A stretch of 20,129 bases of DNA, from positions 1 through 20,129 of the IMG/VR virus record IMGVR_UViG_3300045988_106376, one strand, 5' to 3'. The notes beneath the pieces are model-generated. The model had not been told where the DNA came from. It made no database searches and saw only the letters and a program-made list of their open reading frames with translations. The DNA comes from a virus. Position 1 is the first letter of the stretch. Every line of letters starts with the position of its first letter. Shown here piece by piece: positions 1 through 20,129 of this stretch. A program made the translations under genes and the position numbers.

Positions 1-253
1 GAGTGTCAGCATAACCCTGTTCCCCATTGTCGAACACATGTTCACAGTACATGAACACAAACCAAACCGCCTCGCGTTGCTCGGTCTGGGTTCGCTCCGC
101 TCACCACACCGCACCACACTACATAGCACGACATTACACAACACCACACACCATCACACTAAAATGTTCCACGTGAAACAATGACACGCTAGGGTCCGTA
201 GTGAATTATGTGAAATTACAAAAACACTTGTATTCTAGAATAGGTGTGCTATA
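1..253. repeat. Left inverted terminal repeat (ITR), 253 bp
   Basis: Bases 1-253 are the exact reverse complement of 19877-20129, compared by eye over the whole length. Identity stops after ...ggtgtgctata: the left continues atgag, and the complement of the right end continues ttata. By hand count, 1-180 is about half G+C, against a visibly AT-rich genome body. Confidence 0.95.
102..161. repeat. Six tandem 10-bp phased CA-rich repeats inside the left ITR (consensus CAYYACACnn)
   Basis: Octamers start every 10 bp: 102 CACCACAC, 112 CACCACAC, 122 CATAGCAC, 132 CATTACAC, 142 CACCACAC, 152 CATCACAC. The top strand here has very little G or T. Confidence 0.85.
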
Positions 254-255
254 AT
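228..255 (+). promoter_or_regulatory. Left early promoter in and at the edge of the ITR (TTGTAT-16 nt-TGcTATAAT), with a 12-bp perfect palindrome TATTCTAGAATA (231-242) over the -35 and spacer
   Basis: -35 ttgtat at 228-233. Extended -10 tg-c-tataat at 247-255. It reads into the first ORF (ATG 285). The palindrome was checked base by base. Confidence 0.65.
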
Positions 256-284
256 GAGAGTACAAATAAGGAGAGGACAAGGAA

Positions 285-497
285 ATGAAAGAGATAATTA
301 AGGAAAAATATAGAAGAGAATTAGAAGAAATGTCTAATAATGAATTGTTGTTTGAGTTTGAATTTTGTTGTGATGAAATTGAAAGATTAATGAAAATTAT
401 TAATAATGGTCCATATGAACAAAAGCTTTTAAGTTGTGAAATGGTAAGAAAAAGAATTTGTAAGGAAATTATTTTAAATAGAATGGAGAGTAATTAA
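285..497 (+). CDS. Hypothetical early protein, 70 aa
   Basis: First ORF downstream of the ITR promoter. AAGGAGAGG lies upstream of the ATG. Tightly packed with the next ORF. I recognise no motif. Confidence 0.6.
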   Translation: MKEIIKEKYRRELEEMSNNELLFEFEFCCDEIERLMKIINNGPYEQKLLSCEMVRKRICKEIILNRMESN

Positions 498-2726: not shown

Positions 2727-4553
2727 ATGGCAAAGAAAAAAGAGCCTAAAGAAATTTGGGCTTGTGATTTTGAAACTACAACCGACCCTTTAGACTGTAG
2801 AGTTTGGGCATGGGGAGCAAGTTTTGTTAGCGATTCAAGTATAAAAGAATATGGGAATAGTATTGACGGTTTTATTGAATGGTGCAAACAAAAAACACGT
2901 AAATTATATTTTCATAACTTAGCGTTTGATGGTGAATTTATTGTAAGTTGGCTTTTAAGTAACGGTTATGAGTATTCGGACAAGCCTAAAACCGGATGTT
3001 TTAAAACAATTATATCGAATACAGGTTTATGGTATTCGATTGAAGTATGGTGGAAATATTCAATTTATAGATCAACAAAAACCACAATATGGGATAGCTT
3101 TAAATTAATTCCATTTAGTATTGAGAAGATCGCGCATGATTTTAATTTACCAATTCGTAAATTAAAGTTGGACTATACAACAAAAAGAGAAATAGGGCAC
3201 GAGCTTACACCGCATGAAGTCGATTATCTATTTAATGATATCGATATTGAAGGTATGGCACTGAATGAATGTTTTAAGCTTGGATTTAATAAAATGACAG
3301 CCACTAGCTGCAGTTTTGACGCATTCAAGAAAACTTTGCCTATGTCGTTTGAAAAGATATTTACGCCTTTAGAAATGAATGTGGATACAGATTTAAGACC
3401 GGCATATAGTGGTGGTTTTGTATGGGCAAACCCGGAACTAAAAGAAAAAGAGATAGGACAAGGCATTGTATTTGATGTTAATTCACTTTTTCCATCGCGT
3501 ATGTATTATGAATTATTGCCGTATGATACACCTATTTATTTTAATGGTGAATACCAACAGGATGATGAATATCCTTTATGGGTAGGCGTTGTGAGTTTCG
3601 CTTTTGACATTAAAAAGGACCATATACCTTGTATATCGCTAGATAAGTTTTCTCGATTTTTTGGAAGTAAAAAATATGTAGACAGTTCAAACGGGGATAT
3701 CGTTAGAATGACTGTCACAAGTGTTGATTGGGAGTTATTCAATGAACAATATGATGTTTATGATGTAGAGTTCATTAATGGATATAAATTTAGAGGGTGT
3801 GTAGGTATCGCAAGGCAGTTTATCGATGAGCAAATGGAAATTAAAAAGAATTCTAAAGGTGCACAACGTTTTATAGCTAAACGACAATTAAATTCAGTAT
3901 ATGGGAAGTTCGCAACGAATCCAAATGTAACACCTAAAATTCCGTTTATTGATAAAGATGATGGCGTATTAAGACTTCACGACCCTATGTACACTACCTA
4001 TGAAGATGGAGAGGTTAAAGAGGTAATTGATGAGCAATTTAGAGATCCTATTTATTTACCGTATGGTGAATTTGTAACAGCTTACGCACGTAAATATACG
4101 ATATCAACAGCACAAAAGGTTGGTATACATAGAGTTGCATATATTGATACGGATTCAATACATTTAGTTGGTACACAAGTTCCGGACGCTATTAAAGATA
4201 TTATTGACGATAAGGAGTTAGGTTACTGGGGTCTAGAATCAGTGTTTACACGATCTTATTTTATCGGTGCTAAAAGTTATGTTGAAGAAATTGAAATAAG
4301 TTATAAGGAATACGTGGAGCACCAACAAGAATACATAAGTGAGAACGACTGTAAAGATAATTTGTATTATATTCGTGAGGGAGTTTGTTATTATTTGAAT
4401 GTCAAATGCGCGGGTATGACGCAAAAGGCTAAACAGAATGTAACATATGATAATTTTAGAGTTGGAAATGTTATTAATGATTGTTTAAAAAAGACACATG
4501 TACCTGGTGGTATTGTATTAGTTGATAGACAATTCAGCATTAAAAGTAGGTAG
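2727..4553 (+). CDS. Family-B protein-primed DNA polymerase (phi29 p2-like)
   Basis: Exo I WACDFETTT, Exo II FHNLAFDGEF, Exo III YLFNDIDI, motif A DVNSLFPSRMY, motif B KRQLNSVYGKFATNP, motif C YIDTDSIH and KxY GAKSY are all present. AAGGGGG lies upstream of the ATG. Confidence 0.97.
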   Translation: MAKKKEPKEIWACDFETTTDPLDCRVWAWGASFVSDSSIKEYGNSIDGFIEWCKQKTRKLYFHNLAFDGEFIVSWLLSNGYEYSDKPKTGCFKTIISNTGLWYSIEVWWKYSIYRSTKTTIWDSFKLIPFSIEKIAHDFNLPIRKLKLDYTTKREIGHELTPHEVDYLFNDIDIEGMALNECFKLGFNKMTATSCSFDAFKKTLPMSFEKIFTPLEMNVDTDLRPAYSGGFVWANPELKEKEIGQGIVFDVNSLFPSRMYYELLPYDTPIYFNGEYQQDDEYPLWVGVVSFAFDIKKDHIPCISLDKFSRFFGSKKYVDSSNGDIVRMTVTSVDWELFNEQYDVYDVEFINGYKFRGCVGIARQFIDEQMEIKKNSKGAQRFIAKRQLNSVYGKFATNPNVTPKIPFIDKDDGVLRLHDPMYTTYEDGEVKEVIDEQFRDPIYLPYGEFVTAYARKYTISTAQKVGIHRVAYIDTDSIHLVGTQVPDAIKDIIDDKELGYWGLESVFTRSYFIGAKSYVEEIEISYKEYVEHQQEYISENDCKDNLYYIREGVCYYLNVKCAGMTQKAKQNVTYDNFRVGNVINDCLKKTHVPGGIVLVDRQFSIKSR

Positions 4554-4565
4554 GAAGGTGATAAA

Positions 4566-4694
4566 GTGACAAGTGTTTTAACAAATATATTTTATTATTT
4601 ATTTATGGCATTTTGCTGTTTAAGTGTAACATTTCTATTTGTTGTGTATATTATAGGAATGGCATTAATGATTATTTGGATTATAAAGGAGTAG
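4566..4694 (+). CDS. Small hydrophobic membrane peptide, 42 aa (below the ORF-track size cutoff)
   Basis: GTG start with GGAAGGTGA 4 nt upstream. Translation VTSVLTNIFYYLFMAFCCLSVTFLFVVYIIGMALMIIWIIKE fills the gap between the polymerase and the next gene. Confidence 0.45.
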   Translation: MTSVLTNIFYYLFMAFCCLSVTFLFVVYIIGMALMIIWIIKE

Positions 4695-4698
4695 AAAA

Positions 4699-5145
4699 AT
4701 GGATTTTATAAATTTAATGGTTTTAATTTGTGTAATTTGTTTTATTGTATTATTAATTTTTAGTTTTATTATGTTTTGTAAATATAAATCATTAATTGAT
4801 AATTATAAATATTTGAATGAAGAAGTTGATAGTTTAGCTCATGAAGTTTATAATCGTGATAACGCAATATTTAAAAAGTGTGATAAAACTCTAAAAGAAT
4901 TTAACGAGATCATGTTTGGAAATCCACCACTCAAAAATAAAGTGGTGGTTGTGAGAAGTATAAAGGATTATGATTATACAGCCTATCGAAAAGATATCGA
5001 ATCATTAAATGAATATCTTAAGGATGGTTGGAGTATTGTAAGCCATGAAACGAGTGATTTTGTACATACTTATATATTAGGTATGCCGTTAGTATGGCAG
5101 GATGAAAAAGAAGATGATAAAGGATGTGATAACGATGTTAAGTGA
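4699..5145 (+). CDS. Membrane-anchored early protein, 148 aa (N-terminal TM plus soluble domain)
   Basis: AAAGGAG lies 7 nt upstream. The TM segment is LMVLICVICFIVLLIFSFIMF, followed by a charged soluble region. No recognised motif. Confidence 0.6.
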   Translation: MDFINLMVLICVICFIVLLIFSFIMFCKYKSLIDNYKYLNEEVDSLAHEVYNRDNAIFKKCDKTLKEFNEIMFGNPPLKNKVVVVRSIKDYDYTAYRKDIESLNEYLKDGWSIVSHETSDFVHTYILGMPLVWQDEKEDDKGCDNDVK

Positions 5146-5320
5146 GAAGTCTAAAGAAAATCGGAATAAGTGGTATCGAGATCATGTTAATAAATATTGT
5201 GTTTGTGTGAATAAAAATGAGATTGAAGTTGTTAGATATATTGAAGATTTATTGAAAAAGAAAAAGTTTAGTCAATATGTAAAAGACAAAGTTAAAGAAG
5301 ATTTGGAAAAAATAAAATAA
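5135..5320 (+). CDS. Small basic protein, 61 aa, possible ribbon-helix-helix DNA-binding regulator
   Basis: ATG 5135 has AAAGGA 9 nt upstream and overlaps the previous stop. The ORF-track start 5102 lies inside the previous gene. The pattern YCVCVN (strand), NEIEVVRYIEDLLKKK (helix) and FSQYVKDKVKEDLEK (helix) resembles an RHH fold. The functional call is weak. Confidence 0.4.
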   Translation: MLSEKSKENRNKWYRDHVNKYCVCVNKNEIEVVRYIEDLLKKKKFSQYVKDKVKEDLEKIK

Positions 5321-5331
5321 TCTGTTATTAT
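5303..5331 (+). promoter_or_regulatory. Possible promoter for the non-coding RNA candidate (TTGGAA-17 nt-TATTAT)
   Basis: ttggaa at 5303-5308, 17-nt spacer, tattat at 5326-5331. Such matches are common in AT-rich DNA, so this is tentative. Confidence 0.25.
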
Positions 5332-5337
5332 ATTTAC

Positions 5338-5491
5338 GTAAGGAATAAAGAACGGAAATCAGACATGTATGTTAGGCTTACTCGCGGTGAAACGTGCTAA
5401 CAACATATATAGGAATAGTAATCTAGCTGATAACACTTTAAACTTTACAACCTATTATCATGAAACCCTCTTAAAAGAGGGTTTTATTTTT
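5338..5491 (+). ncRNA. Candidate packaging RNA (pRNA-like), about 150 nt, 5' end uncertain
   Basis: No plausible ORF here. The region ends in a strong terminator (5463-5491). Hand folding gives helix 5365-5375/5397-5406, a 7-nt bulge GCUUACU (5376-5382), and a short helix 5383-5386/5393-5396 with loop GUGAAA. A downstream weak hairpin loop AUAGUAA (5415-5421) is complementary to UUACU of the bulge. Flanking segments 5341-5362 and 5427-5453 pair imperfectly. The position at the distal end of the early operon, after the polymerase and small membrane-protein genes, matches the phi29 pRNA. Confidence 0.45.
5463..5491 (+). terminator. Rho-independent terminator ending the early operon and RNA candidate
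   Basis: aaaccctc (5463-5470) pairs with gagggttt (5477-5484), followed by tattttt. Confidence 0.85.
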
Positions 5492-5492
5492 A

Positions 5493-5521
5493 TTGACTTT
5501 ACAATATTAATATCATATATT
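5493..5521 (+). promoter_or_regulatory. Late promoter (TTGACT-17 nt-TATATT)
   Basis: ttgact at 5493-5498, 17-nt spacer, tatatt at 5516-5521. It lies immediately upstream of the scaffold and capsid genes. Confidence 0.7.
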
Positions 5522-5545
5522 AATAAATAGAAGGGATGTGTAAAA

Positions 5546-5821
5546 ATGGAACGTGACGAATTAAGAAACAAGTTTACGGAAGTGTTAACGGTTGAAGATC
5601 AAGCGGAACGTTCAACTATGTTGAATGATATGCGAGCGGAAGTTGAGAAAACTTTTACAGAGTTAGACAATTTGAAATCCGAGAACACGAAACTAGTTGA
5701 AAAGAATACCTCGTTGACAGAGGCAAACTCAAAACTATTTATGCAAATTGGTGTCGAAAAATCCGGCGGAGAAAAGCCAAAACATGAAGCGCCAATGGAT
5801 TTAAGAAAATTAGGTATTTAA
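5546..5821 (+). CDS. Scaffolding protein (phi29 gp7-like by position and composition)
   Basis: A 91-aa, charged protein with coiled-coil character, directly upstream of the capsid gene. AGAAGGGA is the RBS. Confidence 0.65.
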   Translation: MERDELRNKFTEVLTVEDQAERSTMLNDMRAEVEKTFTELDNLKSENTKLVEKNTSLTEANSKLFMQIGVEKSGGEKPKHEAPMDLRKLGI

Positions 5822-5838: not shown

Positions 5839-7188
5839 ATGTCAAAAACAACAGCAAAAGAAGTAACTAAAACGTTACAAAATAGCTTAGGTATGGACCA
5901 TGAACCAACTGGTCAAGAAGTCGCCAGTGCAATGTATGCAATGAGTTCAAGCAACTTTAGAAGTACAATTGGAGACCCTAACGAAACAAGTTCTTTAGAA
6001 TTTATGAACGGTTTGATAGAATATCCGGATACTTTAGGCGTTGAGTTTATGAATTTAGCGACACGTATCGGTAAAGTGATTGCACACCGAAATATTTTAA
6101 CAAATAAACTAGCACCATTTAAAATGGAAAATATGCCACTTGGTTATACTATGGAAGAGTATTTTGTTGAGTGCGCTAAGGAGCACGAATATAATCAAGC
6201 AGACGCGGAAAACACTTTATTTAAGCGTAGTTTACCAGATATTAAAACAGCTTTCTACGTAGTAAACAGAAAGTCATACTATCCAGCTACAATTAATGAT
6301 GATGATTTAAGAAAGTATTTTGTCACATGGGATGGTGTAAACAGTTTGATCGCTCGTATTGTTGATTCTATGTATAATGGTGACAACAAAGACGATTATA
6401 ACTATATGAAATCCGCTTTAGTTACTCACTACGAAAACGGACATATGAAGATCGTAAACACAAGCGCTGTTACAGATACGAATACAGCTAAAGAATTAGC
6501 TCGTAAAATTACAGAATACGTGTCATATTTGACTGAACCAACAAACGAATATAACGCTATGGCAGTCACAAAACAAAATGACTATGAAGATATTTACGTT
6601 ATTTTAAACGGTAAAACCAACAGCTACTTAAACATTGATTGGTTAGCTCAAACATTCCAATTAGAGTTTGCTCAATTTAAAACACATGTGTTAGTGTTAC
6701 CTACTTTACCAAGCACAGCGCAAGGAAATATTGAGGCAATTGTGTGTGATAGTGAAATCTATCGTGTATTTGACCAAAAGTATAGTGTAGGCGTTGCTTA
6801 CAATGCTAAAGGCTTATATTGGAATTACTTCTTACACCACTGGGAAGGTATCGCAACAAGTCGATTTGCAAACGCAATTGCTTTTGTTTCCGGAAATGTT
6901 GAGGAAAAAGTTACAGCGATTTATTCAAACCCGCAAGTTGTAGAAGTACGTAAAGGTGCGACTATCACAGTACCGTTTACAATTCAAACTAACGGTTTAA
7001 ATGCTAAGTATAGTTTAGCTGCTACATCTAGCGTTGAGGATAAAGTTAAAGCTACAATCGAAAGTGATTTGAAACACGTTAAGATTGAAGGTTTAGACGC
7101 TATTGACGCGGAAGGTTTAGCAACTGTAACAATTAAAGATACAGTTTCTAGTGTAACTTGTGATGTTAAGGTTGTATATAACGTATAG
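5839..7188 (+). CDS. Major capsid protein with C-terminal Ig-like (Big_2-type) domain
   Basis: 449 aa, against about 448 aa for phi29 gp8, and it follows the scaffold gene. The C-terminal segment VTAIYSNPQVVEVRKGATITVPFTIQTNG...ATVTIKDTVSSVTCDVKVVY has the bacterial Ig-like pattern. RBS is AAAGAGGTGA. Confidence 0.85.
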   Translation: MSKTTAKEVTKTLQNSLGMDHEPTGQEVASAMYAMSSSNFRSTIGDPNETSSLEFMNGLIEYPDTLGVEFMNLATRIGKVIAHRNILTNKLAPFKMENMPLGYTMEEYFVECAKEHEYNQADAENTLFKRSLPDIKTAFYVVNRKSYYPATINDDDLRKYFVTWDGVNSLIARIVDSMYNGDNKDDYNYMKSALVTHYENGHMKIVNTSAVTDTNTAKELARKITEYVSYLTEPTNEYNAMAVTKQNDYEDIYVILNGKTNSYLNIDWLAQTFQLEFAQFKTHVLVLPTLPSTAQGNIEAIVCDSEIYRVFDQKYSVGVAYNAKGLYWNYFLHHWEGIATSRFANAIAFVSGNVEEKVTAIYSNPQVVEVRKGATITVPFTIQTNGLNAKYSLAATSSVEDKVKATIESDLKHVKIEGLDAIDAEGLATVTIKDTVSSVTCDVKVVYNV

Positions 7189-8946: not shown

Positions 8947-9282
8947 ATGAAAATTATTTTAGTGGCATTAGTATTTAATGGTTTGGATTTAGTGACAGGT
9001 ATCGTTGGAGCTTTACGAGAAGGTGAGCAAATCAAGTCAAACAAGCTTAGAGACGGACTTTTTAAAAAGGTTGGTTTTATCTTTTGTTACACTTTAGGTG
9101 TTGCGATTAACTATGCGGAAAGTTATTTAACTTTGCCTTTTGGTGTTGATTTAATACCGGTGATTTGTACATATGCAATTATCACAGAGGTAGTTAGCAT
9201 TATCGAAAACATTTCTAAAATAAATAGTGACATCCTGCCGGATAAACTAAAAGCACTAATCGGATATAAAGAGGGTGAATAG
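8947..9282 (+). CDS. Holin (phage_holin_4_1-like, three TM segments)
   Basis: 111 aa. TM segments are IILVALVFNGLDLVTGIVGAL, VGFIFCYTLGVAINYA and LIPVICTYAIITEVVSII, with a charged C-terminus. GAAAGAGGTGA lies 5 nt upstream of ATG 8947. The ORF-track start 8929 sits inside the RBS region. Confidence 0.75.
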   Translation: MKIILVALVFNGLDLVTGIVGALREGEQIKSNKLRDGLFKKVGFIFCYTLGVAINYAESYLTLPFGVDLIPVICTYAIITEVVSIIENISKINSDILPDKLKALIGYKEGE

Positions 9283-9283
9283 T

Positions 9284-12169
9284 ATGAATTTTGATGAAAT
9301 AAAACAAAATATTTTAAATTCAAGTGAAACATCTACGAGCGAAAGCGAAAGTATTTCCGGTTCAGAGTTACATGAAGAATTTGAGATCAATAACTTTTTA
9401 CCGGAATTCGAGCCTTTAAAGTTAAGTGGTAAAAATTTAGCTCAGCAATACGTGAGTGCATTTAATACGGGTATGAATGTATACCAATGTTTAAACTATT
9501 TACAAGGATACGTTTATACACTCGTAACGGCTATGAATGAAACAATTGAGGCATGGAATACGGTAGTACCATTATTAGAGCAAGCTACAAAAGAATGGAC
9601 AGATGAGGAATTTGATTATAAATGGTCAATCTTAAAACCTCAAGTTATTGAGCTTGTAACAAATTTAACAATTGAAACATTCAATAATGCATGGGAAAAA
9701 TTAAGACCGGTTGTTATTAAGCTGGCACAGGATACAACAGACGTCGAATTTAAAAAACAATGGGATATTTTAAAACCGCAAGTTATTACACTCGTCGAGG
9801 AAACAACAACAAATAAATTCAATGAGGAATGGGAAAAATTAAGACCTACAATTATACAATTATCAACAGATACAACAATTGAACAATTTAATAGATCATG
9901 GGAAGAGTTAAGACCTCAAGTCATTGAATTATCACAAACTACAACAAGTAATAAATTTGATGAAAAATGGGAAGAGCTACGACCTCAATTAATTGAACTA
10001 GCACAAACTACAACAAGTAATAAATTTGATGAAAAATGGGAAGAATTACAACCAACATTAACAGAAACGGTTAACAATCTAGCTAAAACACAAACAACAA
10101 CGACATTCAATGAGAAATGGGAAGAATTAAAGCCTAAAGTTATTGAGTTAGCACAAACAACTACTAATACAAAGTTTGATGAAAAATGGGAAGAGCTACG
10201 ACCTCAATTAATTGAACTAGCACAAACTACAACAAGTAATAAATTTGATGAAAAATGGGAAGAATTACAACCAACATTAACAGAAACGGTTAACAATCTA
10301 GCTAAAACACAAACAACAACGACATTCAATGAGAAATGGGAAGAATTAAAGCCTAAAGTTATTGAGTTAGCACAAACAACTACTAATACAAAGTTTGATG
10401 AAAAATGGGAAGAGCTACGACCTCAATTAATTGAACTAGCACAAACTACAACAAGTAATAAATTTGATGAAAAATGGGAAGAATTACAACCAACATTAAC
10501 AGAAACGGTTAACAATCTAGCTAAAACACAAACAACAACGACATTCAATGAGAAATGGGAAGAGTTAAGACCTCAAGTTACTGAATTAGCACAAAATACA
10601 ACAAGCACAAAGTTTGATGAGAAATGGTCCGAATTACAACCAACATTAACAGAAACGGTTACTGATTTAGTTAACACAAATTTAAATACATTTAAAAGTA
10701 CATTATGGCAAGAAGTTACAAAAAATAATGATTTTCCTTTCTTATTACCCGAAAATTTTGGTGCTGTTGGTGATGGTGTAACGAATGATAGCAACGCATT
10801 TAATACATGTTTTGCAAAAGCAAACGCAAATCATAAATATATTTTATTAAGCAATAAAACATATTTAATTAGTAATACTTTAACGAATATCAAAGACACA
10901 AATATAATAGGTATTAATGCTACGATTATATTAGGTGACAACACGTTTACAAAACAAATAAATAATTGTGTGTTTAGTAATATCACAATTAAGCGTACTG
11001 TAGGAAGTGATTTACCACTAACTGAAAACTTTTTTTCATCTCAATTTAAGTATTGTAATTTTGTTGATATTAAGTATTTATTTAATCATATTTCACATAG
11101 AATTAATACGGTAGAACATTTATTATTAGATGAATGTAATTTACAAAATACACAACTTATTAATGTCACTAATCAATTTAATGGTGTGGTTTATAGTATT
11201 AATAAAACATTATTTTATTATGATGATGACTATAAACAAAGAACTACAATTATTGCTGGATATATTGGTGGTAAGTTTATATTTAATAATTGCACTTTCT
11301 CAAAATTTGAGCCGGGTGGAACAATTGAATTATTTGGTTCTCTTGATAATTTTGAATTTAATAATTGTTATATCAGTCATTATGATAATGCAAACACCTT
11401 TATTCTACCGAATATAAGTACTGTGGAGAAACAACAAATAACATTTAATAATTGTGATATTTCAAACAATAATAAATATTTAGTTGATGTGGTTAGCACA
11501 AATAACACGGTGCTGCCAACTGTTAATATTAAATATTCAACATTAAAAGTGAATGCAATTTTTAACGCAAAAAATGAATGTAGTTTATGGCTTGAAAACA
11601 ATCAAATTGACACTAAGCCTATTATTAATGCTGGAGTGGGTAAAGTTAATATCGTTGAAATTCAACAAAAGTATAGTGACACAAGCGAAAATATTTTCCC
11701 TTGGACAACAGAGCCTACGCCAACCGTTGAAAATAATGTTTCACTTGTTAAACTTGGTCAAGATGGATATTATTATGTTTTGACAGAAAGCAAAGATAAA
11801 AATGTTAAAAAATTAGATTATTATTTTAAATATGATTTTGATTATTTACCAAACGCGCCTTATTATAGTAGTAACTTTACTGTTAAAGATTTAGACCTAG
11901 AAGGTTATACAGTTAAGAGATCATCATTAACTAATAACACATGTAAATTAAAAAACAAAAGTACAGGTAAATTAATAGATTATGTTTATTTAATGTTAGA
12001 TGATAATGTAACAGTCACAACATCAAAAGATGACCCGCAACTTGTATTTACTTTAATAGCAGCGAAATATTTACCATATTTCGCTAAACTTAAAACAGAT
12101 ACACCTGTTGAAGGGCATTTGTATGTTGACGCATGTATTTCAATTATTTTAGAAAAAACTAGCTCATAA
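9284..12169 (+). CDS. Pre-neck appendage or tailspike-like protein (961 aa): shared N-terminal anchor, about 15 W/P repeats, C-terminal pectate-lyase-type beta-helix
   Basis: ATG 9284 has AAAGAGGGTGA upstream. NFGAVGDGVTNDSNAFNTCFAKA is the typical N-cap motif of Pectate_lyase_3-type beta-helix tailspikes, as in phi29 gp12. An Asn/Ile/Thr-rich periodic sequence follows it. Confidence 0.85.
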   Translation: MNFDEIKQNILNSSETSTSESESISGSELHEEFEINNFLPEFEPLKLSGKNLAQQYVSAFNTGMNVYQCLNYLQGYVYTLVTAMNETIEAWNTVVPLLEQATKEWTDEEFDYKWSILKPQVIELVTNLTIETFNNAWEKLRPVVIKLAQDTTDVEFKKQWDILKPQVITLVEETTTNKFNEEWEKLRPTIIQLSTDTTIEQFNRSWEELRPQVIELSQTTTSNKFDEKWEELRPQLIELAQTTTSNKFDEKWEELQPTLTETVNNLAKTQTTTTFNEKWEELKPKVIELAQTTTNTKFDEKWEELRPQLIELAQTTTSNKFDEKWEELQPTLTETVNNLAKTQTTTTFNEKWEELKPKVIELAQTTTNTKFDEKWEELRPQLIELAQTTTSNKFDEKWEELQPTLTETVNNLAKTQTTTTFNEKWEELRPQVTELAQNTTSTKFDEKWSELQPTLTETVTDLVNTNLNTFKSTLWQEVTKNNDFPFLLPENFGAVGDGVTNDSNAFNTCFAKANANHKYILLSNKTYLISNTLTNIKDTNIIGINATIILGDNTFTKQINNCVFSNITIKRTVGSDLPLTENFFSSQFKYCNFVDIKYLFNHISHRINTVEHLLLDECNLQNTQLINVTNQFNGVVYSINKTLFYYDDDYKQRTTIIAGYIGGKFIFNNCTFSKFEPGGTIELFGSLDNFEFNNCYISHYDNANTFILPNISTVEKQQITFNNCDISNNNKYLVDVVSTNNTVLPTVNIKYSTLKVNAIFNAKNECSLWLENNQIDTKPIINAGVGKVNIVEIQQKYSDTSENIFPWTTEPTPTVENNVSLVKLGQDGYYYVLTESKDKNVKKLDYYFKYDFDYLPNAPYYSSNFTVKDLDLEGYTVKRSSLTNNTCKLKNKSTGKLIDYVYLMLDDNVTVTTSKDDPQLVFTLIAAKYLPYFAKLKTDTPVEGHLYVDACISIILEKTSS
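9611..10690 (+). repeat. Array of about 15 degenerate in-frame 23-aa (some 27-aa) repeats forming the appendage shaft
   Basis: The consensus is F(D/N)EKWEEL(R/K)PQ(V/L)IELAQTTT(S/N)xK. Every third unit is a 27-aa variant, FDEKWEELQPTLTETVNNLAKTQTTTT. Confidence 0.9.
9956..10563 (+). repeat. Perfect 219-bp tandem repeat, about 2.8 copies (higher-order unit of 23+27+23 aa)
   Basis: Units start at 9956, 10175 and 10394. I compared the copies base by base and found no mismatch until 10564. Confidence 0.9.
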
Positions 12170-13650: not shown

Positions 13651-13680
13651 AATAAGATAAAATAAAAGGAGATGATTAAG

Positions 13681-15870
13681 ATGAGTATAGGAGTTGTTAA
13701 CAGTCAGTTTACACCACAAAGTAAAATTTATCTTTTAAAAGGCTTAGAAATTGACGCAATGAATAACACGTTTTGGGGTGCATTCGATACCCCCGAAAAA
13801 CAATTTAATTTTTTTATTAATAACTATGATCATATTGTATTTGAAAATTACACGTATCAAAGAAAAGATGGTACGGTAGTTGTACCCGGTGTTTATGATG
13901 ATCTACGTTTATACAATTATTTAATTTATCAAAATGGTTCTACAGGAAATAAAGCAAAATGGATTTACTGCTTTATTACAAGTTTAGGGTACTTAAATGA
14001 CAACGCCACAAGTATTAGTTTTGAAACAGATGTAATACAGACTTGGCGTTTTGAAATTGAAGAAAACTTTATGGAATCATACATCGCATATGAACATAGA
14101 CCACAATTTTACACACAAGATAATCAATATTACCCATGTATTAATACACAGCCCGAAAATTTAGAAATTGGAACGGATTTAATAAGCGAAAACAATATTA
14201 GATTAGACCCGAATCAAGATAAAAGTTATGCTATTATTGGAATGACATGCACAATGGACGGAAAAGACACATATACACATGGTACGCTAGGAAGTCCATC
14301 ACAAATTAATTATTATATTTTTCCTTTTTCGAGAAATACAGGCGGTGATATAAAAACATTAAAAATAGGCTCAACATCCGGAGCGGTTGTAACTATTAAT
14401 GGTTTAAGTGAAATTATGAACGCAATACGATCAGATGAAAAATTAGTCGGTAAATGTGTTTCTATTGTTGTAACGAATTCAATTCCCGGTTTAGTAGTAG
14501 AAGATGACCAAATTATCATAAAAAGAGATTGTTTTGAGAGTAAAATGGAAGGTAACTATACTATACTAACTTATAAGCCTTATGCTATGTCTAATATGTA
14601 TGATTCTAGTTCAGACCAATTCGCAAAATCACGTTTGATAGACGCTATGAGTTATTTAGGTATTGGAGTAGGTGACAATACTAAAATGCTATGGTATCCA
14701 TATAGTTATTTTGTATTAAGCGATAGCAATGGAACAACAAAATTATTCAAAAATGAGTTATGGGAAGATATACATAAAATGCAATTTGCTTTTGTTGGCT
14801 CGCCTAACTCATCTAAAATGAATGTAGTTCCAATTAATTATAAAGTTAAAAAGCATTCTATCGGTAATAATATCATGCTAAACTTAGACAACTCTTTTGA
14901 GTCTCAATATGAATCTAGTTTACCTATTATTAGTGACACGACCGCTTTAATGCTACAATCATCACGTAACTCTATGAATGTTGGGTTATCCAATATTAGA
15001 AGATCAAATGAAACAAATTCAGCTATAGCCAGCGCAACAGGTAATGCATTAAGTGCTCAGACAAGCTTACAAAATAACTTAAATTTAAGTGTTACCGCAC
15101 GTAACACAAATTTAGCTAGTAATTTGAACGATTTACAGAACAAATCAAATATGATAAATGCCAGTATAGGCGCTATAGGTGGTTTAAGTGGTGGTATCGC
15201 AAGCGCGTTAACCGGTAATATTGGTGGTGCGGTAGGTAGTTTAGTTGGAGCTAGTTTAGGTGTTGGACAAACGGCAATGCAAAATCAAATCAATACAAAA
15301 CAAACTAATTTACAAAATGCAAATGCACTTGCTAATGCAAACGCACAGGCTAGCGCTAATAGTCAATCAACAGAAATCGGAAATCAATTAAGACAATTAA
15401 CAACACGATACCAAAATCAAACAAACATTCAAAATGCTATGGATAGTTACAATGCACGTATTCACGACGCACAAGCAACTGCCGACAGTATTGTAACCGG
15501 TTCAAATGATCTACTACGACAAACGGCTTTAGATTTAAACACGTTAATATTGTTTGCATATAAACCAACTGAAGAATATCGCAATAAATTAAACCAAATA
15601 TGGGACATGCGAGGTTATGCCACAAATGCAATTGACTATCCAAATTTACATTCTAAGTCGGCATGGAATTATATTCAGACCGTAAAGTGTAATATTAAAG
15701 GTACAAACATCGACCCGATCGATTTGGAAAAAATCAAACGTGTGTTTGATAATGGTATTACACTATGGCATGATAAAAATGTTGGAAATTATGATCGTAA
15801 AAACACTGAAAGATATCAACATGAAAATATTGATAAATTCGGTAACTACTTAAATAGAAAAGTTCATTAA
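13681..15870 (+). CDS. Tail knob / distal tube protein (phi29 gp9-like)
   Basis: ATG 13681 has AAAGGAG 9 nt upstream; the ORF-track ATG 13672 lies in the RBS. [47 protein letters not shown] and [42 protein letters not shown] parallel phi29 gp9 segments as I recall them (KWFYAFVTELEF...[32 protein letters not shown]...[23 protein letters not shown]). Confidence 0.85.
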   Translation: [729 protein letters not shown]

Positions 15871-15903: not shown

Positions 15904-15933
15904 TTAACATATAATTAAAAGGAGATGATTAAA

Positions 15934-16875
15934 ATGGATTTATTGAATGATACGAGCTCTTACACAGATTATTGTAGAAATGCGGTTGATGTTGCTACGA
16001 TGAATAATGGTGAGGCAGATTTTATATATTATACGTATTTACAAATGTTAAGTTTAAATATGTTTAAATATAAAGGTTTACCCGAATCCATTAACACATT
16101 CTATTTAGAATATGTTTTACAAACACGTGGTTACATTGGTTTTTATGATGATGAAAGATTAGGTTTAATTTGTAGTGAAATCACATTAGGCGGTAAGTTA
16201 AACCACTATCAAATGCCAACCGGATACCATACAGTATCAACAAGTCCACTTGTTAAAAAGAATTTATCAAGTGAAGAGTGTGTTGTTATGAAAAACAGTC
16301 CTTTATATGTGGGTATTTTCCCATACTTAAATTTTTTCGCTAAAAAACTAGCCCTAACAAGTCGCACAATGGACCAAAATTTGACCATGCAATGGACACC
16401 GTACATCATTACAGGTGATAAACGTATGTTACAGCAATTCAAAGTGTTTATGAAAAAAATCTTACAAGGAGTTCAAACGATCTTTACTTCAAAAGGTTTC
16501 AGAACGGAAGATGTTAATGTATTACAGACAAATGCACCTTTTATTGCGGATGAGTTACACGGCATGAAACAAGCGATTTTGCGTGAATGTATGACACTAT
16601 TAGGCATTGAAAATGCAAACATGGACAAAAAAGAGCGATTAGTTGCGGATGAGGTCAACGCTAACAACCAGCAGGTTATCGCGTCTAGAAACATTTGGTT
16701 AAGCGAACGTAAAAAAGCGATTGAAGAATTAAATAAAAAATTTAATTTAAACGCAAGTGTAGAGTTCGCACCATATGGGGACTTTGAGGACATCTTGAAA
16801 TTGATTGAATTAGACGGTGATACAAGTCTTTCAGATTTTAAAGACGATCTAACAATTAAAAAAGAAGGTGATTAA
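15934..16875 (+). CDS. Portal / upper collar (connector) protein, phi29 gp10-like
   Basis: ATG 15934 has AAAGGAG 9 nt upstream. LPESINTFYLEYVLQTRGYIGFYDDE and MTLLGIENANMDKKERLVADEVNANNQQV parallel phi29 gp10 [26 protein letters not shown] and [29 protein letters not shown], from memory. Confidence 0.9.
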   Translation: MDLLNDTSSYTDYCRNAVDVATMNNGEADFIYYTYLQMLSLNMFKYKGLPESINTFYLEYVLQTRGYIGFYDDERLGLICSEITLGGKLNHYQMPTGYHTVSTSPLVKKNLSSEECVVMKNSPLYVGIFPYLNFFAKKLALTSRTMDQNLTMQWTPYIITGDKRMLQQFKVFMKKILQGVQTIFTSKGFRTEDVNVLQTNAPFIADELHGMKQAILRECMTLLGIENANMDKKERLVADEVNANNQQVIASRNIWLSERKKAIEELNKKFNLNASVEFAPYGDFEDILKLIELDGDTSLSDFKDDLTIKKEGD

Positions 16876-17614: not shown

Positions 17615-18340
17615 ATGAATATTGATGTAAATAAATATTATGATTATAGAAGAAAAGTATTAGGTACATATGTAGATCGTGATGGTGCTTACGGTTCACA
17701 GTGTTGGGATTTGTATTTTGATTGGTGTGAAAAGAACGGCTTTAAGGGCGCAAATTGTACAAGTAGCGGATATGTTAAAGATATTTGGTTAAACCGACAA
17801 ACAAATGGAATGACACAAAATTGTGTTGAAATTACTGAATTACAACCGGGTGCAATCGTTGTATTTAAAGAAGTACCAAATATTACACCCTGGAGCCACG
17901 TCGCTATTTTTGACAGTGATATAAACGGTGCATACGGTCGCTTTTTAGGTGCGAACCAAGGTGATAAGAACGGTTTAGTGAATATTGTTTCACTACCATA
18001 TTCAGCTACATTTGACACGGCTTTCATGCCTAAAGCTATGATTTTAAGTGATGAAAAAACTGATAAAGTTTTAAATGAAATTCCAAGTGATTTTATTAAA
18101 GAATATGGTACATTCTATCCAAATTGTACAATTAAAATCAGAGAAGCACCAAGTCAAAAAGGAAATGACACGGGTCTATATTATACAAGAGGTATGAGTG
18201 TACGATATGACGGTTATGTTAAACGTGATGGGTATGTGTGGATTAGTTGGATTAGTAGCAGCGGTAAACGTCGATGGATGGCTGGCGGTGAATTAAATTC
18301 AAAGGGTATTAATTACTTACCTTATGGAGTATTCAAATGA
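17615..18340 (+). CDS. Endolysin: N-terminal CHAP domain plus C-terminal SH3b (SH3_5-like) wall-binding domain
   Basis: AGGAGG is the RBS. The CHAP catalytic Cys context is GAYGSQCWDL and the His context is PWSHVAIF. The C-terminal VRYDGYVKRDGYVWISWISSSGKRRWMA is typical of SH3b. Confidence 0.85.
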   Translation: MNIDVNKYYDYRRKVLGTYVDRDGAYGSQCWDLYFDWCEKNGFKGANCTSSGYVKDIWLNRQTNGMTQNCVEITELQPGAIVVFKEVPNITPWSHVAIFDSDINGAYGRFLGANQGDKNGLVNIVSLPYSATFDTAFMPKAMILSDEKTDKVLNEIPSDFIKEYGTFYPNCTIKIREAPSQKGNDTGLYYTRGMSVRYDGYVKRDGYVWISWISSSGKRRWMAGGELNSKGINYLPYGVFK

Positions 18341-19353
18341 CAAAGTCGATTGAATGGTACAGTCCTACCAACATAAAGTCATACAACAAATTTTTAAATT
18401 TTATCATTGGCGGTCGTGGTATCGGTAAAACCTATGGGTTCAAAAAAGACTGTATTAGTCGATATAAGAAAAAAGGAAAACAATTTCTTTATCTACGTCG
18501 TTACAAAACAGACCTAAAGAAAATCAAAACATTTCTTAATGATCAATTTGAAAATTTCAAAGATGATGAATTTAAAATTACAGGTGGTAGCAACTTTACC
18601 ACCTTTTATATAAATGGTTGTGAAATGGGATACGCCACATCTTTAACAGCTTTTGCAAGTTTAAAATCAACTAGTTATGTAGATATCGATACAATTATTG
18701 TCGACGAGTTTATACCCGAAAAGGCAGGATTTAACGCATACATACCGAATGAAGTTGAAATATTATTAAATATTATTGATTCTATATTTAGACAACGAGA
18801 AGGACATGTATATTTATTGGCTAATAACGCAAGTATCGTTAACCCTTATTTTAGTTATTTTGGAATCACACCCGAGCCTAACAAAGAATTTAATACTTTT
18901 AAAGGCAATGAATCCGTCGAACAAATCGTTGTACAAATCTGTCACAATGAATATAAAAAAGGAAACAAAGAAAAATCGAAATTCCATAAATTAATTTCCG
19001 GGACTACGTACGGAGATTATAACGCTGGTAAGTTTGCATATGATACAAACGACTTTATTAAAAAGAAAACAAATGTTTGTGATTATTTATGTACACTATA
19101 CTATGATGATATCTATTATGGTGTTTGGATAGATATGAATACAGGCTATGTGTATATCAACCAACAGATAAACAAAGAATATGGATATTGTTATTCTATT
19201 GGAAGTAATAACCGCGAGAATATGATGATCGCAAAATTATGGCGTAAGGACCAACGACTAAACATGTTAATAAGATCCTATCGTGATGGATGTGTATATT
19301 ACAACAACCAAGAAACAAAACGATTATTAAGCTATATATTAAGTAAATATTAA
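18337..19353 (+). CDS. DNA encapsidation (packaging) ATPase, phi29 gp16-like
   Basis: ATGA overlap with the endolysin stop. Walker A is IIGGRGIGKTY and Walker B is DTIIVDEF. YIPNEVEILLNIIDSIFRQRE and VNPYF parallel phi29 gp16 YIPNEVSALLNLMDTVFRNRE and VNPYF, from memory. Confidence 0.92.
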   Translation: MTKSIEWYSPTNIKSYNKFLNFIIGGRGIGKTYGFKKDCISRYKKKGKQFLYLRRYKTDLKKIKTFLNDQFENFKDDEFKITGGSNFTTFYINGCEMGYATSLTAFASLKSTSYVDIDTIIVDEFIPEKAGFNAYIPNEVEILLNIIDSIFRQREGHVYLLANNASIVNPYFSYFGITPEPNKEFNTFKGNESVEQIVVQICHNEYKKGNKEKSKFHKLISGTTYGDYNAGKFAYDTNDFIKKKTNVCDYLCTLYYDDIYYGVWIDMNTGYVYINQQINKEYGYCYSIGSNNRENMMIAKLWRKDQRLNMLIRSYRDGCVYYNNQETKRLLSYILSKY

Positions 19354-19874: not shown

Positions 19875-19902
19875 AATATAGCACACCTATTCTAGAATAC
19901 AA
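19875..19902 (-). promoter_or_regulatory. Right early promoter, the ITR-borne twin of the left one (TTGTAT-16 nt-TGcTATATT on the minus strand), with the same palindrome at 19888-19899
   Basis: The -35, spacer and first four bases of the -10 lie inside the ITR and are identical to the left promoter. The last two -10 bases differ (TATATT versus TATAAT). It reads into the minus-strand ORF starting at 19847. Confidence 0.6.
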
Positions 19903-20129
19903 GTGTTTTTGTAATTTCACATAATTCACTACGGACCCTAGCGTGTCATTGTTTCACGTGGAACATTTTAGTGTGATGGTGTGTGGTGTTGTGTAATGTC
20001 GTGCTATGTAGTGTGGTGCGGTGTGGTGAGCGGAGCGAACCCAGACCGAGCAACGCGAGGCGGTTTGGTTTGTGTTCATGTACTGTGAACATGTGTTCGA
20101 CAATGGGGAACAGGGTTATGCTGACACTC
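19877..20129. repeat. Right inverted terminal repeat (ITR), 253 bp
   Basis: Exact reverse complement of 1-253. Confidence 0.95.
19969..20028. repeat. Mirror copy of the six phased 10-bp repeats inside the right ITR (GT-rich on + strand)
   Basis: Reverse complement of 102-161, for example gtgtgatg at 19971-19978 and gtgtggtg at 20021-20028. Confidence 0.85.

Follow-up and report, generated by a model that had tools for sequence, protein, structure and literature searches.

In the IMG/VR virus record IMGVR_UViG_3300045988_106376, a stretch of 20,129 bp with a G+C content of 32% that we refer to here in its entirety as the window, positions 5338 to about 5491 of the + strand are very probably the gene for a prohead or packaging RNA (pRNA), a divergent homologue of the pRNAs of the phi29 family. 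An earlier note on this DNA, made from its letters alone, had proposed a candidate pRNA between the early and late operons; the proposal is supported by the architecture of the RNA, by the covariation of its kissing segments, by matches of a covariance model of the gut-phage RNAs (R2, below) to the pRNA genes of phages Nf and B103, and by gene order, and every element that the note described is present, with small changes of coordinates. Our reading is based on structure, covariation, complementarity between a bulge and a hairpin loop (the D loop), promoter and terminator signals, synteny, and similarity to validated pRNAs.

A predicted three-way junction supported by covariation

At minimum energy, 5321-5491 folds into a three-way junction followed by a terminator (-35 kcal/mol, z -2.5 vs. 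shuffled sequences; z -1.1 vs. shuffles for the core alone). The z-score is suggestive but only modestly beyond the shuffles; junction and terminator coexist in this fold, and no competing antiterminator appears. Judged from its sequence, the RNA is a predicted three-way junction with A, C, E and D elements and a CE-type bulge on the 5' side, all on the + strand. The A helix joins a 5' strand at 5338-5362, which opens with G5338, the putative transcription start, to a 3' strand at 5427-5448 that is supported by covariation, and its 16 bp fall into an outer (5338-5343/5443-5448), a middle (5346-5350/5436-5440) and an inner segment (5358-5362/5427-5431); between classes, both sides are changed in each of the five middle and each of the five inner pairs. 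The pairing of imperfect, A-helix-like flanks that the earlier note had placed at 5341-5362/5427-5453 therefore stands, while their bounds have been revised to 5338-5362/5427-5448. In the C helix, the 5' strand 5365-5375 pairs with the 3' strand 5397-5406, for which covariation supports 9 bp (5370-5375/5397-5402 and 5365-5367/5404-5406) and leaves 5368-5369 opposite 5403 as a small internal loop; the helix itself was correctly seen, although it does not have the 10 bp and the bulged A first given for it.

The 7-nt bulge GCUUACU lies at 5376-5382 on the 5' side, exactly as first described, and contributes its 3' bases UUACU to the kissing pair. Next comes the E stem-loop (5383-5396), a 4-bp stem CGCG/CGUG with the 6-nt loop GUGAAA that abuts the 3' strand of the C helix; this hairpin, too, had been noticed by eye, and it is now backed by compensatory changes (CG to UA at two pairs). 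A linker of 3 nt (5407-5409) then leads to the D hairpin (5410-5425), with stem 5410-5413/5422-5425 (UAGG/UCUA), and a single base separates this hairpin from the 3' strand of the A helix. A downstream hairpin had indeed been predicted here, although its loop is now an 8-nt one (5414-5421) rather than 7 nt at 5415-5421, and all four pairs of its stem are changed on both sides between classes. An alternative D pairing given by RNAalifold (5416-5418/5423-5425) was dropped for 5410-5413/5422-5425; the outer stem is preferred because L061 and other classes keep it by compensatory changes, with the kissing bases in the loop.

A scan of viral contigs with the capsid protein gave a close clade of 80 loci (80-98% capsid identity), and the RNA region is conserved in 77 of these, at 84-96% nucleotide identity. 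Among these close relatives the C helix interchanges GUUAG/CUAAC, AUCAG/CUGAU and ACCGG/CCGGU, the E stem interchanges CGCG/CGUG, UACG/CGUA and CAUG/CAUG, and the RNAalifold consensus is a three-way junction plus terminator with nine pairs changed on both sides. We scored the named structure in two alignments. In A2, which holds 60 distinct close-relative cores, 99.3% of cells are paired (vs. 24-45% in controls with slid partners) and none of 500 shuffles attains the observed covariation score. In A5, which holds 97 related metagenomic loci with 72 distinct sequences in five classes, 98.2% of cells are paired and 30 of the 38 pairs are compensatory, with both sides changed (vs. 28-44% paired and 6-16 double-changed pairs in slid controls; 0/500 shuffles reach the observed values), counts that lean to this structure since A5 was fitted to the nested helices of the model. 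The kissing helix is spared this bias because it lay outside the covariance model. For the predicted structure, we regard the comparative signal as decisive against chance.

Bulge and D loop co-vary between divergent classes

Two contigs, L018 and L026, have capsid proteins 87-91% identical to that of the window, yet they carry a very different RNA in the same place (3493-3605 and 3482-3593, respectively), with other A-helix segments and another kissing pair. Nearly identical capsids alongside a different RNA class suggest modular exchange of the end of the early region, including the RNA gene. The small open reading frame (ORF) upstream in L018 and L026 is also more diverged. More distant classes came from two capsid representatives, P0121 (63% identity), which led to L154-L158 and to L159 and L160, and P0122 (45% identity), which led to the Logan contig L168. 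A covariance model built from the close clade (R1) matches L018 and L026 at 69-75 bits and L154-L158 at 25-37 bits, in both cases syntenically, upstream of the scaffold gene, and it matches L159 and L160, again syntenically, at 18-22 bits with filters off. The model R2, rebuilt from ten representatives, all of them gut-phage sequences, gives 68 bits for L160 and 24 bits for L168. All classes share the same architecture with whole helices replaced: the middle A-helix segment reads UAAAG/CUUUA, AUAACA/UGUUAU, GCAAU/AUUGC or CAUAAA/UUUAUG, and the D stem reads UAGG/UCUA in the window, ACAC/GUGU in L154-L158 and ACGG/UCGU in L168.

The bulge and the D loop co-vary with these replacements through six or seven different complementary sequences. 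The window class pairs bulge UUACU (5378-5382) with D loop AGUAA (5417-5421); the corresponding pairs are UUUUC with GAAAA in L018 and L026, GUAU with AUAC in L157, GCAU with AUGC in L154, L155 and L158, UGCAU with AUGCA in L156, UUCAUU with AAUGAA in L159 and L160, and UUUC with GAAA in L168 (bulge first in each case). Cognate runs are 4-6 bp long, vs. mostly 1-3 bp for non-cognate combinations, and the last bulge base, beside the E stem, is always where the run ends, just as for the AACC/GGUU pair of phi29. An anchored shuffle test of the kissing pair gave P 0.005-0.04 per class and a Fisher combined p of 2e-6, a generous value since the classes are related phages and the combination overstates their independence. 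In A5 the kissing helix is paired in 94% of cells, and 5/5 of its pairs are changed on both sides. Within the window clade the bulge bases UACU and the loop bases AGUA never change, so that the kissing covariation rests on comparison between classes. The AGUAA/UUACU complement to which the earlier note had drawn attention is thus real, and the co-variation of bulge and hairpin loop that it had suggested looking for is found across six or seven classes.

Further searches added little to this set. The relatives listed by a close protein search with the capsid protein, and also with P0122, were all at least 84% identical and included no divergent class; P0122 had no relatives in viral contigs; a DNA pattern scan of viral contigs recovered almost only the two RNA classes already in hand; and R1 had no match in L163-L166, distant gut relatives with about 30% capsid identity. 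At the locus 2486-2701 of L162 (capsid 49% identical), the genes upstream of the scaffold gene lie on the opposite strand, as in phi29, and neither R1 nor R2 finds an RNA in the 7.3 kb of L162 that were scanned.

A model of the gut-phage RNAs detects pRNA genes of Bacillus phages

Although R2 was built only from gut-phage sequences, it finds validated pRNA genes. In Nf it matches 175-289(-) with 28.0 bits (E 1.3e-4), within the ncRNA annotated as 'packaging RNA' (120-290); in B103 it matches 175-289(-) with 27.2 bits (E 1.9e-4), at the locus that the Rfam pRNA model RF00044 also matches; and in phi29 its top match genome-wide is the pRNA locus, 204-320(-), though at E 1.1 (E-values of R1 and R2 are rough throughout, from a shortened calibration). 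The R2 alignments to the Bacillus pRNAs match like elements with like. The RNA ends are shared as well, reading ACAAGG...CUUUGU in B103 and Nf, ACAAGG...CUUUGG in L159 and GUAAGG...CUUUAC in the window, with the consensus (G/A)(U/C)AAGG...CUUU(A/G)(C/U/G). Some relatives of the window phage, e.g. L007, read CACGGUGAAACGUG, a sequence also present unchanged in the left end of Bacillus phage PumA1, and their E stem-loop CACG-GUGAAA-CGUG recurs exactly in that phage. Because the model detects both groups, like elements align with like, the ends are shared and the E stem-loop recurs in PumA1, we conclude that the gut-phage and Bacillus RNAs are homologous, not merely similar.

The unannotated left end of PumA1 (vB_Bpu_PumA1, NC_049971.1; L183) itself holds, at about 90-215(-), a promoter and a pRNA-like RNA with the bulge AUAAACC, the E hairpin CACG-GUGAAA-CGUG and a loop containing GGUU, which gives a phi29-type AACC/GGUU pair. 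R2 matches it partially, with 16.8 bits, and RF00044 has no match in this left end at E-values up to 1.

Signals of a discrete transcription unit

The RNA lies in a gap of 225 nt between the stop of the ORF at 5102-5320 and the start of the scaffold gene at 5546. A mechanical ORF of 53 aa (5369-5530) overlaps this gap, and no reading frame conserved across the variant RNA classes was found, which agrees with the earlier statement that some 150 nt here have no credible ORF. A promoter scan placed a promoter for the RNA gene at 5303-5331(+), with a -35 box TTGGAA (5303-5308), a 17-nt spacer and a TG-extended -10 (TG 5323-5324, hexamer TATTAT 5326-5331). Comparison of 78 relatives shows no change in the G of the TG or in five of the six -10 positions but variation in the 6 nt between the -10 and G5338, and in the alignment of relatives conservation sets in abruptly at G5338; the invariant -10 and this onset fit a transcription start 7 nt past the -10. 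The strong terminator that had been said to close the stretch is seen as a 12-bp stem at 5460-5487 followed by a T/U tract, the intrinsic terminator spanning 5460-5493(+).

These signals recur in the other classes. Every class with an upstream flank has a -35/-10 pair with a 16-17-nt spacer and with 6 nt between the -10 and the first base of the A helix (L168, which is cut at its 5' end, shows a -10-like box only). At 10-50 nt past the A helix, each class also has an intrinsic terminator, whose sequence is unrelated from class to class. Conserved G-U pairs (5342-5444, 5359-5430 and 5384-5395) would become C-A on the other strand, which argues that the structure belongs to the + strand transcript. 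The signals therefore fit a discrete small transcript, presumably started from its own promoter.

The same architecture as the phi29 pRNA in different proportions

We compared the window RNA with the phi29-family pRNA, represented by RF00044 (Phage_pRNA) and by phi29, PZA, B103, M2/Nf, SF5 and GA-1. In the Rfam consensus, the phi29 pRNA combines a long A helix with a C helix (5+4 bp) that has a single bulged base in its 5' strand. A bulge of 9 nt and the E hairpin (4 bp, 6-nt loop) come next, the hairpin abutting the 3' strand of C, and three linker bases lead to the D hairpin (6 bp, 5-nt loop), after which comes the A 3' strand. The window RNA has the same elements in the same order, with E hairpin dimensions and a linker that are equal to those of phi29, whereas its A helix is shorter (16 bp in three segments) and its C helix is built of 3+6 bp with a small internal loop. 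The gut-phage RNAs also differ from phi29 in having a smaller bulge (6-7 vs. 9 nt), a shorter D stem (3-5 vs. 6 bp) and a larger D loop (6-11 vs. 5 nt), and in the window a plain terminator hairpin takes the place of domain II. Self-complementary, covarying loops are a hallmark of ring-forming pRNAs, and known pRNAs have 2-5 potential kissing base pairs (PMC4201828), beside which the gut-phage runs of 4-6 bp can be set.

Gene order is shared with phi29 as well, in the sequence terminal protein, polymerase, small ORFs, promoter and RNA, so that the position after the polymerase and the small early ORFs that had been likened to phi29 is the same. In phi29, however, this block is inverted and lies at the left end of the genome, with the RNA read outward, whereas in the window the RNA gene is internal, between the early and late operons, and co-directional with both. 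The sources also differ, human gut here as against Bacillus phages for the phi29 family.

The window further encodes both protein partners of a phi29-type motor, as the earlier note had said: a gp10-type portal or connector (15925-16875, +; PF05352, E 7e-57), the expected docking partner of the RNA, and a gp16-type packaging ATPase with a C-terminal domain (18337-19353, +; PF05894, E 6e-73), expected on the A-helix spokes. Residues 1-330 of the 338 of this ATPase align with gp16 of B103 and PZA at 35-37% identity. The N-terminus of the portal is basic in phi29 but not in the window, where it (15925-15990) reads MIKMDLLNDTSSYTDY, without the cluster of basic residues of phi29 gp10; an Arg/Lys cluster is absent from its start, MIKMDLLNDTSSYTDYCRN. 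The basic N-terminal patch of phi29 gp10 has been implicated as a pRNA contact, and docking of the RNA on a portal that lacks it, if any, may thus differ from that in phi29.

Most probably the motor would be assembled as follows. A sigma-A-type promoter with an extended -10 would start the transcript at or near G5338 and the intrinsic terminator would end it near 5491, giving an RNA of about 154 nt, of which 5338-5448 would fold into the three-way junction with the A helix formed from both ends, the bulged C helix with its E cap, and the short D hairpin. The last bases of the bulge, UUACU, would pair with AGUAA in the D loop of a neighbouring molecule, and this head-to-tail pairing would build an RNA ring on the portal vertex of the empty prohead; the gp16 ATPase ring would assemble on the A helices, which would point outward like spokes, and would pump the protein-primed genome into the head. 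In this scheme transcription, pairing in trans, the stoichiometry of the ring, binding to prohead and ATPase, and a need for the RNA in packaging are all steps that we infer.

Weighing a packaging RNA against other explanations

Several findings weigh against a packaging RNA and are best considered together. RF00044 has no match in the window at its gathering score (100 bits) and none at E-values up to 10 on a 401-nt slice (5200-5600), so that the scan with the Rfam pRNA covariance model that had been proposed as a check came back empty; across Rfam, scans at gathering and at permissive E-values returned only terminator-like noise in the window, and those of the variant loci and of Enterococcus phage Athos (below) returned nothing. 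The model is, notwithstanding, a narrow one: its positive control, phi29, scores 145 bits, and the experimentally studied pRNA of B103 (NC_004165.1; L180), at 172-287(-), scores 50.2 bits, below the 100-bit cut-off, which means that standard Rfam annotation misses known pRNAs outside the phi29/PZA group. Besides the rough E-values of R1 and R2, the fitting of A5 and the non-independence of the classes in the Fisher combination, there is the D stem, which has only 3-4 bp and a closing pair that is mismatched in 10 of 72 sequences. The kissing pair of the window class is rich in A-U (1/5 G-C) and invariant within the class, and the kissing covariation consists of between-class comparisons amounting to about six events. 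The portal N-terminus MIKMDLLNDTSS is without the RKR-type basic patch of phi29 gp10, and sequence alone would accommodate either pairing in trans or a pseudoknot in cis.

We consider it unlikely that the element is a free-standing small RNA with another role (e.g. a regulator of host or phage transcripts, or an anti-defence decoy) whose likeness to pRNA reflects ancestry without packaging. Such an RNA would also have its own promoter and terminator, and it would sit comfortably with a portal that lacks the basic patch and with the precedent of Lactococcus phage asccphi28, a phi29-like phage reported to give no evidence of a pRNA and to have an ATPase that forms rings alone (PMC7823558). The phage of the window has in common with asccphi28 a small size, protein-primed replication, long terminal repeats, and gp10-like and gp16-like proteins, and R2 has no credible match in the asccphi28 genome (NC_010363.1; L184). 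However, the asccphi28 ATPase aligns with that of the window over its N-terminal 210 residues only (residues 1-210), as against the full-length alignment with gp16 of pRNA users, and this contrast groups the window phage with pRNA-using motors. Moreover, the unpaired bases conserved within a class belong to the E loop and to both kissing segments, with no extended single-stranded seed such as a regulatory RNA would be expected to have, and covarying self-complementary loops mark ring-forming pRNAs (PMC4201828).

Within each 577-bp terminal repeat of asccphi28 we noted an orphan transcription unit of about 300 nt, at 23-401(-) and as its mirror in the right repeat, bounded by the annotated promoter P1 and terminator T1 with no ORF between them, in which R2 finds nothing convincing.

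More improbable still is a cis-acting leader, that is, a riboswitch or attenuator with an internal pseudoknot that would control read-through from the early to the late genes via the terminator at 5460-5487. The structured domain does directly precede this terminator and then the late genes, and bulge and hairpin loop could pair within one molecule, forming a pseudoknot of the sort known from several riboswitch classes. A strong sigma-70-type promoter for the late operon (TTGACT-17-TATATT, 5493-5521, +), however, stands between the terminator and the scaffold gene with its ribosome-binding site, and by eye it has counterparts in most other classes (the TTGACT -35 is clear in L018, L026 and L159, and the remaining classes with such a site show -10-like boxes only). 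The RNA thus has its own promoter and terminator with promoter-like sites downstream and no conserved frame, and junction and terminator form together in the minimum-energy fold with the antiterminator absent, all of which argues against a leader or attenuator. In addition, none of the riboswitch or leader families in Rfam matches at its gathering score, and the validated Bacillus-phage pRNA genes that R2 finds encode free-standing RNAs.

Finally, a chance fold in AT-rich intergenic DNA with a promoter and terminator, which would suit the modest single-sequence z-scores (-2.5 for 5321-5491, -1.1 for the core) and the fact that a 5-nt complement is not rare in such sequence, has next to no probability left, being refuted by the covariation counts (30/38 compensatory pairs, 0/500 shuffles reaching the observed covariation, 28-44% paired in slid controls vs. 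98% for the structure) and by conservation that begins exactly at the predicted +1.

A probable extension of the pRNA family beyond Bacillus phages

To our knowledge, no RNA besides pRNA serves as a structural component of a viral DNA-packaging motor; pRNA is also a workhorse of RNA nanotechnology. A 2024 review describes it as unique to phi29 and related Bacillus phages (PMC11476376), and in the literature on pRNA with Enterococcus, Picovirinae, Salasmaviridae or gut we found no report outside Bacillus phages, within an incomplete coverage that leaves prior work possible. The comparisons presented here support a new, very divergent member of the pRNA family in a phage clade without an earlier report. 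They would extend pRNA from Bacillus phages to a large clade of human-gut phages, for which searches with the capsid protein gave more than 120 related viral contigs and 476 protein clusters, and they add some 70 different natural sequences, which bring several new kissing-loop pairs and variants of the three-way junction. Unlike RF00044, R2 reaches both the gut RNAs and the classical pRNAs. These findings also make it testable whether pRNA is ancestral in phi29-like phages. Truly conserved, by this comparison, are the length of the C helix, the dimensions of the E hairpin (4 bp, 6-nt loop) and the way in which the kissing pair is anchored. A question that also arises is how a pRNA would dock on a portal without a basic N-terminus.

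One could go further and propose, as a possibility that we ourselves hold to be rather doubtful, that pRNA is ancestral and widespread in the phi29-like phages of gut Firmicutes, and that the at least six exchanged kissing classes form an assembly-compatibility code. If this were true, the loop pair would stop mixed motor rings from forming among co-infecting relatives, kissing classes would be exchanged between phages with nearly identical capsids (L018 and L026 vs. the window), and the group of the cultured Enterococcus phage Athos, which has a structured RNA gene in the same place, may be included.

Athos (LR990834.1; L167) has a window-like gene order and an unannotated gap of 266 nt (4577-4842) that separates the last early ORF from the scaffold gene. 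Besides a promoter (TTTACA-17-TGgTAAAAT) and a terminator, this gap holds a structured RNA whose hairpin CACG-UGAAAUAU-CGUG resembles E. In four sequences of this RNA at 96-97% identity, two compensatory changes are already seen, GUUAAC/GUUAAC to GUUGAC/GUCAAC in the A helix and CACG/CGUG to CGCG/CGCG in the E stem. R2 has no match in the Athos-type RNA, and a possible kissing pair has only 3 bp (UGU/ACA), seen against metagenomic relatives that either share 96-97% identity or are too far removed to be aligned. This RNA, from 4612-4745, may be the pRNA of a cultured Enterococcus phage.

The phage genome and its other genes

The window ends in perfect inverted terminal repeats of 253 bp (1-253 and 19877-20129), visibly G+C-richer than the genome, and because both ends are perfect inverted repeats we take it to be a complete linear phi29-like genome; the terminal repeats of phi29 are 6 bp. 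Nearly all large genes lie on the + strand. They include SSB (1410-1811, by family search), a terminal protein candidate of 280 aa (1866-2708, chosen by position and size, with no family match), a type-B DNA polymerase (PolB, 2727-4553), small early ORFs after the polymerase up to 5320, the last of them at 5102-5320, the scaffold gene (5546-5821), a Phi29_MCP capsid protein (5839-7188) and a gp9-like tail knob (13672-15870), besides the portal and the ATPase described above.

Among isolated phages, megablast with the whole window gave no match and distant blastn with the RNA region gave terminator-like pieces only, and the best capsid matches, to Enterococcus and Bacillus phages, have 33% identity. 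A near-identical contig has been binned with a 'Clostridia bacterium' genome from the human gut, which suggests a human-gut environment and hints weakly at the host, without showing it to be Bacillus. A structural ORF of 964 aa (9275-12169) contains a tandem repeat at 9898-10627 (219 nt, 3.3 copies, 94% matches) with a 69-nt sub-period; in the protein this gives 73-aa repeats with a 23-residue sub-period.

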